A stretch of 64,000 bases of DNA, taken from sequence record NZ_CP095281.1; one strand, given 5' to 3'. How positions within the stretch are numbered: position 1 is the stretch's first letter; every line of letters starts with the position of its first letter. Position numbers: made by a program. This stretch comes from a plasmid. Shown one piece after another: positions 54,601 through 60,600 of the stretch.

Positions 54601-57600
54601 ATTTCAGAGCGTGCCACATTGACAGTGGTACGCTCTGGTATACCTGCCTGCCGTGATTGATTGAAATTCAACCACCTCCTTTATTCGTATCCCACTCCGA
54701 AATGGCCAATAACGGGCTACCAAGCCATCGCAGTTAAAGTTATCTACATAAAAATGCATCGGATAAGGCTCTTAAAATGCGCGGGAACGCTTGATAGATG
54801 CATGGTTACTTAAGAGATAAATATTCCTAAAAGATCAGATCTTGTCTGTCTCCCGTTATCTGTGGATAACGGGGAAGAATGCCTGGCTATGCAGGGCAGC
54901 TACGCTGCCCGCCGCCAGAGGGGGGAAAAAGGAGAGAGGCTGGCCTTGAGCCCTGGCCTGACAGGATAGCCTCTTATAGGCTTTTGCACGATGATTGGAC
55001 AGTAATGAAGGAGGCGTCATGCGACAGCATCAGCAGGAGTGCCATGTCACTCCTGCTGCGCTGATTGGGAGATGTACCGTTTCAGGGCCTCTTTTCCTAC
55101 CGAATCTATGATGGGTTTCAGTAGCCTTGGAGCGTGGCCCCGGCCAGACCACTGCACTAGCTGACCATTAATCTCGTAGGTGATTTTCCTGGCTGGTTTG
55201 CGCTCTTTTTCCAACTTCTCTTTCAGCCGGTCATAGGGTATCCCTAATTCTTCTGCACGTTGAAGGAGTTGTTTTTTGAGTAGTCGTGACGCTTTTTTAG
55301 CTTCATCGCGTGCGATCATTTCTTTCTCAATTTCCTTTACGAGTTTACTTAGCAACCTTGGGCTCAGTTTCGCCAGAACAGACTTTCTGGATTCAGCACG
55401 GGAGAGATAACAGACAACAGATTCGAGATCGGGCACGGGTGTATACCTTAAAGAAGAGATCATATTCTGATGAAGAGAGGCACATTTGATGCGCCAAGAC
55501 TCACTGAATTTTTGAATAAATAAAATATATTTTTCCTATCTCCACGATAATATAATCCACTAGTGGGGAATGAGTATCAGAGATGCTAAATACATCTTCG
55601 CCCTATTCAGCAACAGATGGTTTGGGCCGTGCACCACAGTGAATTTATCTGTAGATGGCATAATAATGGTGCCCGGTATCAAAACCAAAACCTTGGAACA
55701 GCTATATGACAACTCCAGTCGCTAAAAAGTTTGCTCTTCCCATGCGGATTACTCAAATATCTCGCCCAGGAATGCCAGTTTGTTGATGGAGCAGCGCGTG
55801 TAGGGTATCCCCGAGGTTTGGTACTCCGGCGCTAAGCAGCACCTTGGCGGCGGCCAAAGAACGGGACTCTCTTCGTGGTAACAGCAAGACATACCCGCCA
55901 GCGTGGGGGCGCGGTAAGTCGCCTACGAAGTACGTGGCCTGAAGGACCCGCATCGCATCTGACAGTGCCAACCAGCGTACCGGGTCTTTGGTGATGCTGA
56001 ACAGCATGTATTCATCGGTGAGAGCGGTGACTGCGGCGGGGTTGAGTCGGTACGCCTTGAGGTTCCCCTTCAACTGAACCGGACAGCGAGCGACGCCAGC
56101 GAGGTAGCGAGCGGTGGCAAAGTGATGGCTGCCGCCTTCATTGATGAGGCACACTCGGCCATCCCAGTCGTGGTAGCAAAAATAGTCGAAGCACCTTGGT
56201 TGCATGATCCGAACTTCACCATGGGCCAGGTTGCGGGCGATGGTGTCAGGGCTGGCATCATCGAGATATCCCTGGCAGCGGGCCTCCGCAAATGCGTCGA
56301 GATCAGTGAACTGCTCGAGGGGGCTCTTGGAAGCATTGAGCACTTCTACTTGGCGAATATCACAGGTCCATCCCTCAACCTGCACCTGCTCGCAAAGATT
56401 GGCGAGGGCACCAATCATGATGGTCACACCTCGATACTCGCCATGAACGTATTGTCTGCCACGCAATTCACCGGGTTTGGCATCCCAGCCGGAAGGCAAC
56501 CATTGGTGCCAGCGAGTGATGTAGTCAACGTCGGTATTGCGTGGGAGTTCAAAGGCGTAACCGATATCAGGATGGGCAAGTAGCAGGGCATTCAGGTTAG
56601 CAGGGTAGCCAAACTGGTGCTGGATATAGTGCACGGCGGCGGTAAACATGGTGAGGACTCCATCCGGTTCCAAAGGGAAGTTTGAGTGCAGCACACACTC
56701 ATGGAGCGGCGCTGTTTGTATCCGCTATCCTGTGGCCCGAACAATTAAACGTCAACTCACCTACTGAGTAGTGGATTGCCCTCTATCGGTACCGAAAAAC
56801 TCAGGCCGATCTCCGAGGCCGCCGCATCCAATGAGAGCACGGCGGTATAGACTTCGGTCGATTTGAGCGATCGATGCCCCAGATAGGCCTGCAGCCGCTT
56901 GATGTGGAGGTTTCCGCAAAGGAGCAAGTGCATCGCGAACGAATGCCGAAACACATGTGGCGTCAGCGGCACGACCAGGTGAACCCCCCTCCCCCGTAAT
57001 CCCCCCTCTGCCTCTTTCAGCCAGTTCCTCACCGTCTGATCGGTCACTGTCCAGATCGGGGCCGACTTGGCCAGCTTGAACGTGCTCAGGTACTCGCGGG
57101 CCAGCTGGGCATAGGCCGGATCCAGCAGCGGCACCAGCCGCTTGAGCTCGGTTCCCGCCCGGGGCCGCCCCTTGCCCCGGTTACGCTGCTTGAGGGTGCG
57201 CAGTACCACGAACGGCCTCCCCCCATCGAGCTCGAAGCTGGCAGGGGTCAGCGCCAAGGCTTCATTGATGCGGGCACCGGTGTTCCAGAGGGTGGCCACC
57301 AAAAAGCGGCGCTGCAGATCCGGCAGCATGGCCAGCACCGCGCCCACCTCATGCGCCAGCAAGTACCTGGGCGCGTCCGTGTGGGCGATGGCGAGGTTAC
57401 GCAGTGCCGTGGCCACCCGCCACTGTTCAGGGCTGCCAGCGGGGCGCACCAGCGGGCCGCCGCCCTGGTGCAGGGTGGCCAGGGTGTGGCCATGGCCAAG
57501 AGCCAGTGGGGTGATCTGCATCGGGATCCTCGTCGTGCGGGTGAGTGGGTGATCGGCAGGATGCCAGATCCTGGTGGCCGCTGTCAGGGCCAATAAATCC

Positions 57601-60600
57601 GCGCCGGTGCTGCTCGGTTTTTGGAGTTTTATCGTTATGGGCAAAAAGTCAAAGCGGGGGCGCGGGCCTGGACAGGTAGCGGGCGGGGGAGATCCTTGCG
57701 GGATCCACTACATCTAGTGGCACAGGCCAGCTGCAGCGGCACAAGATGTTGGGGTGCGGGGGGGGCTGGCGGGGATTTGGGAGTCTAGGCCAACGGCCAA
57801 AGCCAAGGGCAAAAGGACGCTGCCGCGCTGCGCTTGCCTGCTGGCGGGTGCGCGACGGCGAACCGATGCCGTCGCTTACCGCCCAGCGCTGATCCCGGTT
57901 GCAGCACTGCAACGGACAGACGGTGACTTGTCCGGGTGTCCCCTCGGTTGGTCGGATTACCCGTGCATGGCACAATGGTATTATTGAGTCTGCCAGAGGG
58001 GGCACGATGACGCCGGAGAGAATGAGGCAGTACGGCAAAGGACTGGGGTTGTGGCAAGACAAGCGGCTGGCGAGCGCCGACCCCATCTCTTATCTGCGCA
58101 AAGACCACCCGATCAGTGTGACGCCCGTGGCGCAGGCCCAAGGCTTCTGGCTTGACTCGACTGACGACTGCACCAAGCCATACAACCCGCTGGCCAATGG
58201 TGTGTTCCTGTGGACGGAGATTATCGGCGCGGGTCACGCCTTTGTGTCGGTGCACCAGGACAACAACTCCTATGTCTACACCTACGGGCGATTTGGCCGC
58301 ACGGTCGGATCCCTAGGGGCTGTTGGCGATGGGGTGTTGAATTTCTTCCAGTTCGGGGATGCGCGAACCTACTACCAGACCGCCTTGTACGGCGTGAACG
58401 CCAAGGCATTTCGTATTGACGACGCCGATCCGGCGATCACCCGCGCCTACTTCGAGCGCCTGTGGCGAAATGGTGCGCCGGTGAGCCCCACCCCTACCAT
58501 GGGGGACATGACCCGGCGCGGCGGCCACACCATCGATCTGTACGATGTGACTGGGAAGAACTGCACGACCCACGCCACCGATGGCCTGAAAATGGCGGGA
58601 TCCAGTGTGTTCAAGGGCGGCTATACCACCCATTCCCAGATGCGGGTTGAGTCGGAAGAGGATTTTGCCGTACCGTTGTCGCTGCAGCGTTACCTGATGC
58701 AGAAAAGCGCCGAGCCCTCGATGCAGGTTGTCGATATGACCAACGAGTTTCGGCGGCAATACCCGAATACCGATGGGGTGATGCCCGCGAACGAGGATAA
58801 CCCAAACACCCGTACATACCGGGCCATGGCCGAGGCCGCGTCTGCCATTGGCACCGTCTCGCCGTATTCAGGCGGCTCGGTGGGTGGGCTACTAGGTGGA
58901 GAGAGTCATGTTAGCAATTAAGACCAAAACCGTGTTGCGGTGGGCCGGTATCTCGCTGGTCTCGCTGGGCTATTACCTCTGGCTGGGGGTGGCTTCTACC
59001 AGCTTCGGGCACATTGCGGAGAAGGAGAGTGTCGTCGGCTCTGGCCCCGTGTCACTGGAGTATCACCGCGCCATGATTGACGCGGTGATGCAAGCCACCG
59101 GCGTGGTGTTTGACGCGGCAGGACTGGGCTTCCTGGTATGCGTCCCACTGATCCTTCTCATCTTCCACAAGGTCAGGTGACCGGCTCTTTTGTCTCCGGT
59201 GAGCACCCGCCTTGCATTCACACATTGCCCCGCCTTGCGGGGCTTTTGCTTTCTGGGCCAACGGCCAAAGCGGCGAGCAAAACCGGCCAGCGAGGGCGGG
59301 CGGGGTCCTGCCTGCTTGCAGGCCCGCAACTGGCACGGCCAAACCGGGTACAATGGGGGCTCCCATTTTGCCCTGGAACGCATCGATGCCCGCCCTTATC
59401 CCTGAACTGATCGCCCTTGCCAGCGATCCCGCCGTCAAGACCGCCGATCTGCTGCGTAAGGCCCTGGTGGCCGCCCGCCTGCTCAGGCAGCCCGAATGGG
59501 CCGCTTGGATCAATCATGAGCTGCAGGGATACCCTGATGGCGTTGAGCTACCGGCCTACCGGTTGCTACGTGGTGAGCTGAAAGCCTACAACCCAGCGAG
59601 GGGATTGATCCCGCTTCGTACTCCGTCAGCTGAGATGACAGAGTGGCTATCAACATGTCGGTTTGTCTGGTCCGTAACTGAGCTTGAAGAGTTGGCCGCC
59701 GACGAACTCGGGGCGAGGTACTTTCTTCCAGCTGAATTGGCGGACTCTATAAGAAGAGCGCAACGACTACCGATGACACCAGAGGTAGCTGTGGAGGCCT
59801 GCAAAGTTCGTGGGCTGTTGGGGGCGGTACGCGACAAAGTGCTGATCTGGGCGCTCGATCTGACAGACGCGGGGATACAGGGGGAAGGGATGACGTTTAC
59901 GCCCAAGGAGCAGCAGCAAGCCCAGCAGCTGGCGCCGGTGAACATTCACATCCAGGGGAATGCTACCGGCTTTCAGTTCATGCAGAACTCGCCCGGGGGC
60001 CAGCAACAGCAGACGGTGACCGGTGAGCAGAAGGCCGATGCCCTGGCGGCCTTGCTGCCCTGGCTGGCTCAGGTGATCGAGAATGGACAGCTGCAGCGGG
60101 AGGTTTGTGACGAACTGCAGAGCCAGCATGCCGCTCTGCAGGCACTCGCCCGCGCTCAGGCGCCGAGCTGGCCGCTGATCGGGGCGCTAGCCAACAGTGT
60201 GCGGGCGATCCTGGAAGGCGCTGGCGGCGAGGTGCTGGCGGCGCAGGCGCTGGGGTGGCTAGGCACCTTGACTGGTAGCTGATAGGTATCAGGGAGGTGG
60301 ATTGGCGGGGCTGCTGCCCCGCTTTGCATTCTTGGTCAACGGCCAAAGCCCGCCCCCAATCCGATCCCATCGAGGGGCCGGGATCCTCACCGATTGCAGC
60401 GCTGCAATTCACCCGACCGCCCCCCCGCGCCCAGGCCCGCCCTGCTCCCTGTTCTGATCGCCCAGGTCGGGGAGCCCGCAGAATTCGGAAAAAATCGTAC
60501 GCTAAGGTTTTCCGGGCATCCGTAAGGGCCGAAACTTCCCGTCTTCCAGTCTGCGGCTCTGCCGCCAGACGTAATCGCCGGTTAGGTTGATGTGCTCCCA

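Follow-up and report, generated by a model that had tools for sequence, protein, structure and literature searches.

A gene array punctuated by a repeated element

The stretch of DNA analysed here, referred to as the window, comprises 64,000 nt of the plasmid record NZ_CP095281.1, and all coordinates are those of the window. The plasmid is from Aeromonas and has a pAsa8-like backbone. Beside its replicon lies a gene for a tyrosine recombinase of the ResD family, a plasmid multimer-resolvase type (254 aa; 56757-57521, minus strand), and an array of accessory genes that diverges from it is punctuated by copies of a short repeated element. The gene order is IncFII-type repA, an H-NS gene, a DUF6685 gene and the recombinase gene, with parAB also nearby. 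Beyond the recombinase gene follow two rfsF-like motifs, site B (CCACTACATCTAGTGG, 57705-57720) and site A (ACAAGATGTTGGGG, 57741-57754), and then copy 1 of the element (57769-57803), which consists of the universal core described below. From copy 1 onwards all features of the array are on the plus strand: the class-specific leader of module 1 (57804-58006; palindrome TTGCAGCACTGCAA at 57899-57912), the gene for the 304-aa toxin-domain protein Tox304 (58007-58921), the overlapping gene for Imm90, a 90-aa two-helix membrane protein and putative immunity protein (58908-59180), element copy 2 (59227-59271), an AbiTii-class leader (59272-59385), the gene for a 298-aa AbiTii-like protein (59386-60282), element copy 3 (60305-60349) and the leader of the next module (60350-60468; palindrome TTGCAGCGCTGCAA at 60394-60407), which is cut by the end of a transposon. 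The GC content is ~0.61 in the array region versus 0.42-0.52 in the transfer backbone. These assignments of the recombinase, the 304-aa protein, the overlapping membrane open reading frame (ORF), the AbiTii-like protein and the transposon inverted repeat agree with an initial annotation of the window.

The initial annotation had also reported three copies of a ~50-bp element sharing a 13-mer. The 13-mer, CAACGGCCAAAGC, was indeed found at 57791-57803, 59259-59271 and 60337-60349, each time on the plus strand. With up to one mismatch allowed, there were four matches in the window compared to 0.12 expected, a number reached in none of 100 shuffled sequences. The fourth match (30725-30737, minus strand) was rejected as an element copy; it is part of the coding sequence of traW, is kept as such in pAsa8 and pAsa8-b, and lacks both a hairpin and conserved flanks. 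A consensus and an information profile were built from 51 distinct copies of the element. The element is conserved as proposed, in a longer and modular unit that extends from approximately -45 to +35 around CGGCCAAAG; beyond it lies a class-specific right part that can reach ~130 nt. Conservation was strongest at T-N-GG-N-CAA-CGGCCAAAG and in the T-rich TTTGNTTTCT before it. The T-tract TTTGNTTTCT together with NGGNCAACGGCCAAAG makes up a universal core of ~34 bp, and this identical core bounds every module in direct orientation. Each element is composed of a terminator-like hairpin specific to the upstream gene, the universal core and the class-specific leader of the next module. At +9 to +13 after CGGCCAAAG (57803-57807, 59271-59275 and 60349-60353) there is a hypervariable 5-nt patch, which is linked to neither the upstream nor the downstream module and has a mean identity of 0.43-0.45 in all pair classes.

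A GC hairpin had been described for every copy. A stable hairpin, with a perfect 7-bp GC stem, was present in copy 2 (GCCCCGC-CTT-GCGGGGC, 59227-59243, followed by T-tract and core at 59244-59271) and in copy 3 (GCGGGGC-TGCT-GCCCCGC, 60305-60322, followed by T-tract and core at 60323-60349), but not in copy 1, whose fold was no better than that of shuffled sequence (z = +0.75). The hairpin sequence tracks the upstream gene family: GCGGGGC..GCCCCGC stands behind AbiTii-like genes and GCCCCGC..GCGGGGC variants behind others, with compensatory swaps between CG and GC at three stem pairs in 7-9 of 27 sequences. Copy 2 passed a terminator scan and copy 3 consists of the stem plus TTTGCATTCTT. A GC-rich stem-loop, a T-rich tract, a position just past the stop codon and compensatory stem changes are the form of an intrinsic terminator, which suggests that the hairpin and T-tract terminate transcription of the upstream gene and that the T-tract of the core completes the terminator. 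Single-strand DNA folds of the three copies on both strands (z -2.2 to +1.0) gave no attC-like bulged palindrome, which had been expected from an integron-like layout; the consensus fold likewise gave a short perfect hairpin and no attC-like structure, and only copies 2 and 3 carry such a hairpin. The element had no match in Rfam at E ≤ 1, and a sigma-70 promoter scan of 56500-60600 found no canonical site. The core was also considered as a sigma-54, sigma-32 or sigma-70 promoter and as an IHF, Xer/dif, Chi or DNA-uptake site; by eye none of these fitted convincingly.

To determine the distribution of the element, we used BLAST and an nhmmer profile built from exact-match copies. At least 51 distinct copies were found, and BLAST detected the element on ~38 plasmid records, some with up to 8 places; a single record, an Enterobacter plasmid with the same segment, is from outside Aeromonas. 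The nhmmer profile found 3 copies in the window (E = 2e-22 for copy 2 and 6e-20 for copy 3), 10 in pAsa8-b, 10 in pAsa8, 9 in pAER-f909, 4 in pO23AP4, 3 in a pAsa9-like plasmid, 7 on an A. salmonicida contig and 8 and 5 in two stretches of an A. rivuli contig. Copy 3 of the window is identical to the pAsa8-b copy at 25755-25853. Every copy is on the cargo strand, so that the ~60 copies are all direct repeats within their locus, and in the mapped layouts the distance from the end of the cargo ORF to the element is typically a few to ~40 bp. When 185,579 species, each represented by one genome, were scanned for the pattern, multiple copies were confined to three small Aeromonas contigs; a further 15 loci had one match each, equal to the chance expectation. 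The element is therefore plasmid-specific and not a chromosomal repetitive extragenic palindromic (REP) sequence, one of the cases that had been named as refuting the initial interpretation. Within the window, the palindrome of the leaders recurs on the backbone but the core does not, and a 22-nt sequence from the core, discussed below, is absent from the A. salmonicida chromosome (PMC10673383).

The cargo consists of toxin, immunity and defence-type genes, as the initial annotation had suspected. Tox304 corresponds to a separately encoded C-terminal domain of the PAAR/type VI secretion system (T6SS) effector type. It has 492 homologues; those of Pectobacterium, Lonsdalea and Aeromonas are likewise separate proteins, and those of Enterobacter and Kosakonia are the C-terminal domain of 378-aa PAAR (PF05488) fusions. 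The residues H77, H83, D108, C186 and H189 are invariant and include an NCTTH motif. Tox304 had no match in Pfam, NCBIfam or PADLOC, and its AlphaFold2 model (mean predicted local distance difference test score 46) was too poor to use. Imm90 follows Tox304 homologues in 4 Aeromonas loci, and a 91-aa Enterobacter ORF that is 53% identical to it (E = 5e-27) shows the same kind of overlap with the 3' end of the gene for the PAAR toxin. We therefore read Tox304 and Imm90 as a putative T6SS-type effector domain and its putative cognate immunity protein. The AbiTii-like protein matches AbiTii in Pfam (4e-34) and in PADLOC (1e-36), and it belongs to a family of 26 paralogues in 9 loci, with at most 8 per plasmid and 37-97% identity among distinct paralogues; these account for 26 of the 112 array ORFs. 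Residues 1-80 and 165-300 are conserved and residues ~80-160 are hypervariable, which suggests diversifying selection on a target-recognition region. Paralogues are present in loci L003, L005, L017 and L028, and a weak PADLOC AbiTi match covers residues 186-223. The other modules encode RelE/ParE toxin-antitoxin pairs, DUF2235 and PAAR proteins and several small families.

Module reassortment and crossover at the core

To examine whether the cargo differs between related plasmids, we compared the arrays module by module. The module families Tox304 with Imm90, s94, p308, p210 with p78, a toxin-antitoxin pair and the AbiTii paralogues occur in an order and with neighbours that vary between plasmids, so that the variation in cargo between element copies that had been predicted was found, and strongly, with breakpoints at the core. 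The window differs from pAsa8-b by exactly one extra core-to-core unit (Tox304, Imm90 and element 2), and the flanks of this unit are 83% (left) and 99.2% (right) identical to pAsa8-b. In PLSDB, no near-identical arrays that differ by one module were found; the best other plasmid shares 32% of the pAsa8 array.

The element copies were then compared in pairs. In pairs with a common upstream flank, similarity typically ends at +7 to +9 of CGGCCAAAG. In pairs with a common downstream flank, similarity most often begins at -26 to -10, with smaller groups further downstream, and the breakpoints in the right part are scattered over +16 to +126. Several unrelated leader classes begin at the same core, and the class goes with the following gene. 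The right-part class CCAAGGGCAAAAGGACGCTGCC... is also present behind other cores in pAsa8, pAER-f909, the pAsa9-like plasmid and pAsa5-type loci, where the CCAAGGGCAAAAGGACGCTGCC-class leader precedes the same genes in some loci and different genes in others.

A crossover at the element has been documented experimentally. The plasmids pAsa5 and pAsa8 fuse at the 22-nt sequence TTTGGCCGTTGGCCTAGACTCC, and fused and separate forms coexist at comparable read coverage (PMC10673383). The fusion shows up after conjugation into naive strains (PMC10673383). Similar tyrosine recombinase genes adjoin the fusion site, and the authors proposed its recognition by these enzymes; in pAsa8 they noted three partial matches only, and they did not describe a repeat family or arrays (PMC10673383). 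The reverse complement of the published 22-mer is GGAGTCTAGGCCAACGGCCAAA, which is located at 57780-57801 in the window and is the core of copy 1. To map the crossover, we aligned the natural recombinant pAsa5-3432 with both parents, pAsa5 and pAsa8. Its sequence is of pAsa5 type up to GATTGGGG and of pAsa8 type from AAAACGGCGGG; the switch between parents thus places the crossover inside the 23-nt identical run that corresponds to this sequence of copy 1. The adjacent 1.1 kb is 78% identical and contains five longer identical runs of 28-32 nt, which plain homologous recombination would be expected to favour over the 23-nt run. Junction 1 of pAsa5-3432 was considered as another element and rejected; it is an IS5 end inside a truncated NYN-domain gene and is uninformative.

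The recombinase and competing explanations

The recombinase matches the Pfam family Phage_integrase (6e-13). A BLASTP comparison with ResD of the F plasmid gave 47% identity across 244 residues (E = 1e-64), and so homology over the full length; ResD of F is encoded downstream of ccdAB. The recombinase of the window is 94.5% identical to its pAsa8 counterpart, and homologues at 45-50% identity are present on more than 5000 Enterobacterales plasmids. Against the Xer and IntI models of NCBIfam the recombinase scored far below every cut-off: 52.4 bits versus 265 for the integron integrase TIGR02249, with residues 180-234 the only aligned part, and 39 versus 435 for PRK15417. The resD genes of the F plasmid, of Yersinia pYV, of one Klebsiella plasmid and of 9 Aeromonas loci are all preceded by a pair of CACW-ANATNT-WGTG motifs, ~36 bp apart. 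In the window this pair is directly left of copy 1, and in 9 loci rfsF-like motifs adjoin an element of the copy 1 type. The pair is presumed from its sequence to be rfsF-like and is a candidate ResD binding or resolution region. The coexisting fused and unfused forms of pAsa5 and pAsa8 (PMC10673383) lend indirect support to a putative role in resolving plasmid multimers or cointegrates.

The motif pair was located at 57705-57754 in the window, 34686-34735 in L003 and 11428-11480 in L029, and its central hexamers vary between plasmids (ACATCT, AGATGT, AGATAT, ATATCT and ATATAT). Such variable centres resemble the spacer regions of tyrosine-recombinase sites. In pAsa8-b a second motif pair lies inside the array, beside a PAAR gene and without a recombinase gene. 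The DUF6685 protein (55753-56694) is a constant neighbour of the resD-like gene in Aeromonas and is disrupted in pAsa5; it is also encoded on 595 plasmids of E. coli, Pseudomonas, Klebsiella and other genera. As a better-correlated partner of the element it was rejected, being present in only 23 of the 38 element-bearing records and widespread on unrelated plasmids.

On these observations of anatomy, distribution, module reassortment, breakpoint position and an in-core crossover in a natural recombinant, we read the repeats, with moderate confidence, as junction elements of a modular accessory-gene array, in which partners are exchanged at the core, probably catalysed by the ResD-type enzyme at the first copy and possibly also at internal copies. 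The array would start at the resolution-site region of the ResD-family recombinase. Each module would be self-contained, with its leader, one or more genes and its terminator lying between identical, directly repeated cores. Recombination within the core would reassort upstream and downstream partners and insert or delete modules, and at the copy beside the recombinase gene it could fuse two plasmids. The ResD-type recombinase would be the most likely catalyst at this first copy, and the same enzyme may be active at the 'core-only' internal copies too. RecA-dependent exchange between repeated cores and leaders may contribute as well, and at the internal copies exchange may be either enzymatic or homology-driven. 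A link to the recombinase is supported by its membership of the ResD family, by the rfsF-like motifs beside copy 1 in 9 loci, by a 5' remnant of the gene that two plasmids without the intact gene retain at their first element, and by the switching of gene sets described for ResD/rfsF in IncI1 and IncR plasmids (PMC8004404, PMC9412624).

Several points weigh against this reading. The link between recombinase and core is drawn from sequence and position, and a role of the enzyme at the internal copies is hypothetical. No core-like sequence was found beside resD in the F, Yersinia, Edwardsiella and Klebsiella loci, and the ResD-family motif pair resembles the core only weakly. The only inverted repeat in the core is 4 bp long (TTGG-N7-CCAA), which is weak for a tyrosine-recombinase site. 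An efficient enzyme acting on 10 direct repeats would collapse the array. The recombinase gene is intact in 19 of the 38 element-bearing records and the other 19 are without it; in the two such plasmids examined, pAER-f909 and the pAsa9-like plasmid, only a 5' remnant of the gene is left beside the first element, and arrays therefore outlive the recombinase gene. The positions -13 to -8 and +9 to +13 are tied to neither flank (identity at +9 to +13 is 0.43 in downstream-sharing pairs versus 0.45 in unrelated pairs), and linkage to the downstream flank appears only from ~+21. Variable breakpoints, or gene conversion among paralogous leaders, would explain this linkage decay better than a single fixed crossover. 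The AbiTii genes may have duplicated and evolved in concert together with their flanks, which could account for some of the repeat conservation. As for the self-contained modules, their promoters are assigned from the conserved TACAAT, no canonical sigma-70 promoter having been found.

Several of these points would be accounted for if the core were a functional repeat, kept for gene expression as a T-tract plus protein-binding site, with the shuffling a RecA-dependent by-product and the ResD-type enzyme only resolving multimers at its own rfsF-like site. Diffuse linkage decay, the hypervariable patch, the dispersed right-part breakpoints, the survival of arrays after loss of the recombinase gene and the dissimilarity of ResD-family motifs and core all agree with homology-driven shuffling, for which the AbiTii paralogues and their leaders would supply long homology. 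Homologous recombination was also considered by the authors who described the pAsa5-pAsa8 fusion (PMC10673383). However, the crossover of pAsa5-3432 falls in the 23-nt run despite the longer runs nearby, and the coexistence of fused and unfused forms at comparable coverage (PMC10673383) is hard to reconcile with 22 nt of identity. Furthermore, no expression role was recognised for NGGNCAACGGCCAAAG, which has no sigma-70 or Rfam match, and the core is confined to the array, unlike the backbone-wide palindrome. We regard shuffling by homology alone as possible but doubtful.

The repeats could instead be remnants of AbiTii tandem duplication, that is, the conserved 3' and 5' flanks of a growing paralogue family between whose members other genes were inserted. 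AbiTii paralogues are the commonest cargo, and their coding ends and leaders are strongly conserved. This explanation is improbable: runs of non-AbiTii modules are bounded by the core (p210 with p78, s94 and p308 in pAsa8-b; Tox304 with Imm90 in the window), so that cores between two non-AbiTii modules are already seen and duplication could not be the sole explanation; one core stands behind all hairpins although these are gene-family-specific; and unrelated leader classes share the core as their start point.

A true integron or an Xer-dependent, pdif-like module system, both raised by the initial annotation, is very improbable. A recombinase does adjoin a co-oriented array with repeated sites, and Xer and IntI models were its best, though weak, NCBIfam matches. 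Of the proposed cassette-array layout, the recombinase, the hairpin-less first site and the co-oriented modules with related ends stand, but the assignment to integrons does not: the IntI alignment is limited to the C-terminal 55 residues at 52 versus 265 bits, the folds contain no attC-like bulged palindrome, and the modules appear to bring their own leaders and terminators. Similarly, a comparison of the core consensus TTTGNTTTCTNGGNCAACGGCCAAAG with the dif consensus revealed neither an 11-6-11 dyad nor an XerD-arm-like TTATGTTAAAT. In pdif systems the sites on either side of a module are inverted; here all sites are direct repeats and the enzyme is of the ResD family, and membership of either family was ruled out by these tests. 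Finally, a selfish repeat of the REP or miniature inverted-repeat transposable element type, or a small RNA gene, is highly unlikely, since the element, although short, multi-copy, intergenic and hairpin-bearing, is absent from chromosomes in the species scan, is always co-oriented with the cargo directly past a stop codon, has no terminal inverted repeats or target duplications and has no Rfam match.

Read as junction elements with an exchange point in the core, the repeats and the recombinase can be placed among known systems: the recombinase and its presumed adjacent site belong by descent to ResD/rfsF, and by design the closest systems are integrons and rAID-1. With ResD/rfsF of F, IncF, IncI1 and IncR plasmids the Aeromonas system has in common a homologous recombinase beside the replicon and paired upstream motifs, the latter seen in the F, Yersinia and Klebsiella loci; in IncI1 and IncR plasmids, gene sets have been described to switch at rfsF (PMC8004404, PMC9412624). 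It differs in having an extra, Aeromonas-specific core behind the site region, repeated up to 10 times through a gene array, and in that the documented crossover is in this core and not in the family-wide motifs. As in integrons, a recombinase is followed by a first site without a cassette-type hairpin and by co-oriented units that each end in a related site, and the array can outlast the recombinase, as in clusters of attC sites lacking integron-integrases (CALINs). Unlike integrons, the Aeromonas array has no IntI-type enzyme and no single-strand-folded attC but a short duplex core behind an ordinary terminator; its units appear to carry their own leader and terminator rather than depend on a common Pc promoter, and it is located on plasmids.

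The rAID-1 systems of Bacteroidales consist of a XerD-like recombinase, a co-directional array with repetitive intergenic sequences and immunity cargo, and are defined by a recombinase of XerD-like type whose identity to BF9343_RS08045 exceeds 44% (Ross et al., bioRxiv 10.1101/471110). The likeness, one of design and not of descent, lies in a tyrosine recombinase, a co-directional array, intergenic repeats, deviating GC content and interbacterial toxin/immunity cargo. In contrast to the Aeromonas array on plasmids, rAID-1 occurs in another phylum, with another recombinase family, on the chromosome or on integrative and conjugative elements. The Aeromonas array genes diverge from the recombinase, their cargo adds whole toxin genes, toxin-antitoxin pairs and AbiTii-like paralogues, and the Aeromonas system has an experimentally documented crossover at the repeat.

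Two further systems offer partial parallels. In Tn4430, the tyrosine resolvase TnpI acts on the IRS, a core site with accessory repeats, and all four motifs share one TnpI-binding sequence. A possible analogy is that a full site by the gene gives resolution selectivity and core-only sites are competent for unconstrained recombination; here, however, the core is unlike the rfsF-like motifs. Phage morons and the linkers of modular phages are likewise self-contained promoter-gene-terminator units between backbone genes, swapped at short conserved junctions, but the Aeromonas arrays are long and plasmid-borne, and a single 34-bp junction serves all of their units.

These comparisons allow a more specific proposal, which we put forward only tentatively: the system may be a double-strand, 'lox-like' counterpart of the integron, in which a ResD-family resolvase has its full site by the gene and the core-only copies serve as minimal sites for capture, excision and reordering and for reversible plasmid fusion. 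With such a system, promoter-to-terminator modules would be assembled into arrays that hold T6SS toxin/immunity pairs, toxin-antitoxin pairs and members of a diversifying AbiTii-like defence family.

Leaders, plasmid context and implications

The AbiTii-class leader has the order CCCAAATCCGGCCAGCGAGGGCGG.CGGGATCCTC.CCGC, TTGCAG-NN-CTGCAA, ~20 nt, TACAAT, ~35 nt and ATG, and was kept before the AbiTii-like paralogues in all arrays examined. In the window it contains the block CCGGCCAGCGAGGGCGG..., the degenerate palindrome TTGCAGGCCCGCAA at 59316-59329 and the -10-like TACAAT at 59349-59354. The leaders of the units carry TACAAT or TTGACA-type boxes. Matches to the palindrome TTGCAG-NN-CTGCAA occur 36 times in the window compared to 0.3 expected, and 15 perfect sites are dispersed over the backbone (for example at 9037, 13348, 25470, 28698, 44032, 49046 and 53635). 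One site is 35 bp before the IncFII-type repA (53669) and one is at the parA/parB junction (49046); a ParB-family protein is encoded at 49092-50213. Taking the transcription start suggested by the TACAAT, the centre of the palindrome would be ~39 nt upstream of it, the geometry of the class I KorB operators of IncP plasmids. The palindrome TTGCAGNNCTGCAA thus looks like a candidate operator or parS of a KorB/ParB-type global regulator; both the promoter activity of the leaders and the identity of the operator-binding protein are predicted from motifs. Tandem-repeat arrays at 17150-18450 and 32400-35400 have units of ~187-202 bp with ~65% GC, each with (C/T)TGCAGTGCTGCAA. One follows the MobF relaxase gene and the other lies among transfer genes, beside an IS5-type transposase gene (35646-36662). 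These arrays could be a sink or a centromere-like array for the palindrome-binding protein.

Copy 3 had been taken for the end of the array before the transposon inverted repeat. Comparison with pAsa8-b revealed that a Tn3-family transposon (60469-63954) is inserted into the leader after copy 3: in pAsa8-b the homologous leader runs on into a module encoding 210-aa and 78-aa proteins, and the homology of the window ends at 60470. The remainder of the array presumably continues beyond the transposon, outside the window. The transposon consists of a 38-bp terminal inverted repeat (60469-60506) and, from the reading of its ORFs, tnpA (60502-63468, minus strand), encoding a 988-aa TnpA, and the resolvase gene tnpR (63472-63954, minus strand). 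We take it to be of the Tn1721/TnAs1 type, judging from its repeat sequence and the annotations of relatives.

Elsewhere on the backbone, two curlin-repeat proteins (Pfam Curlin_rpt 3e-24 and 7e-56), csgA/csgB-like amyloid fibre subunits, are encoded at 1423-1944 and 1979-3553, and these genes explain the 66-nt periodic repeats found there. Six 99-bp tandem repeats at 19668-20459 lie inside a 1264-aa ORF (19061-22855, minus strand), the counterpart of the pAsa8 TraG N-terminal-domain protein, and the length of this gene differs between pAsa8 and pAsa8-b.

The array is a real recombinase-associated modular system, largely undescribed, and an analogue of an integron but not an integron. The 22-nt crossover was published before; the repeat family, the arrays, the module structure and the paralogue family were not found described in the literature searched. 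If the core is a genuine recombination site, these plasmids would have a cassette platform that relies on a common plasmid resolvase family and not on an integron integrase, and hence a second way of assembling and reshuffling defence and toxin genes would be open to plasmids. Such a site would then explain the fusion of pAsa5, which carries virulence genes and a type III secretion system, with pAsa8, which carries multidrug resistance, in the fish pathogen A. salmonicida, and its presence would indicate with which other Aeromonas plasmids, carriers of carbapenemase genes among them, pAsa5 or pAsa8 can recombine. Even if exchange is by homology only, the arrays are a compact and well-delimited source of candidate defence and toxin genes, including a multi-copy AbiTii-like family.

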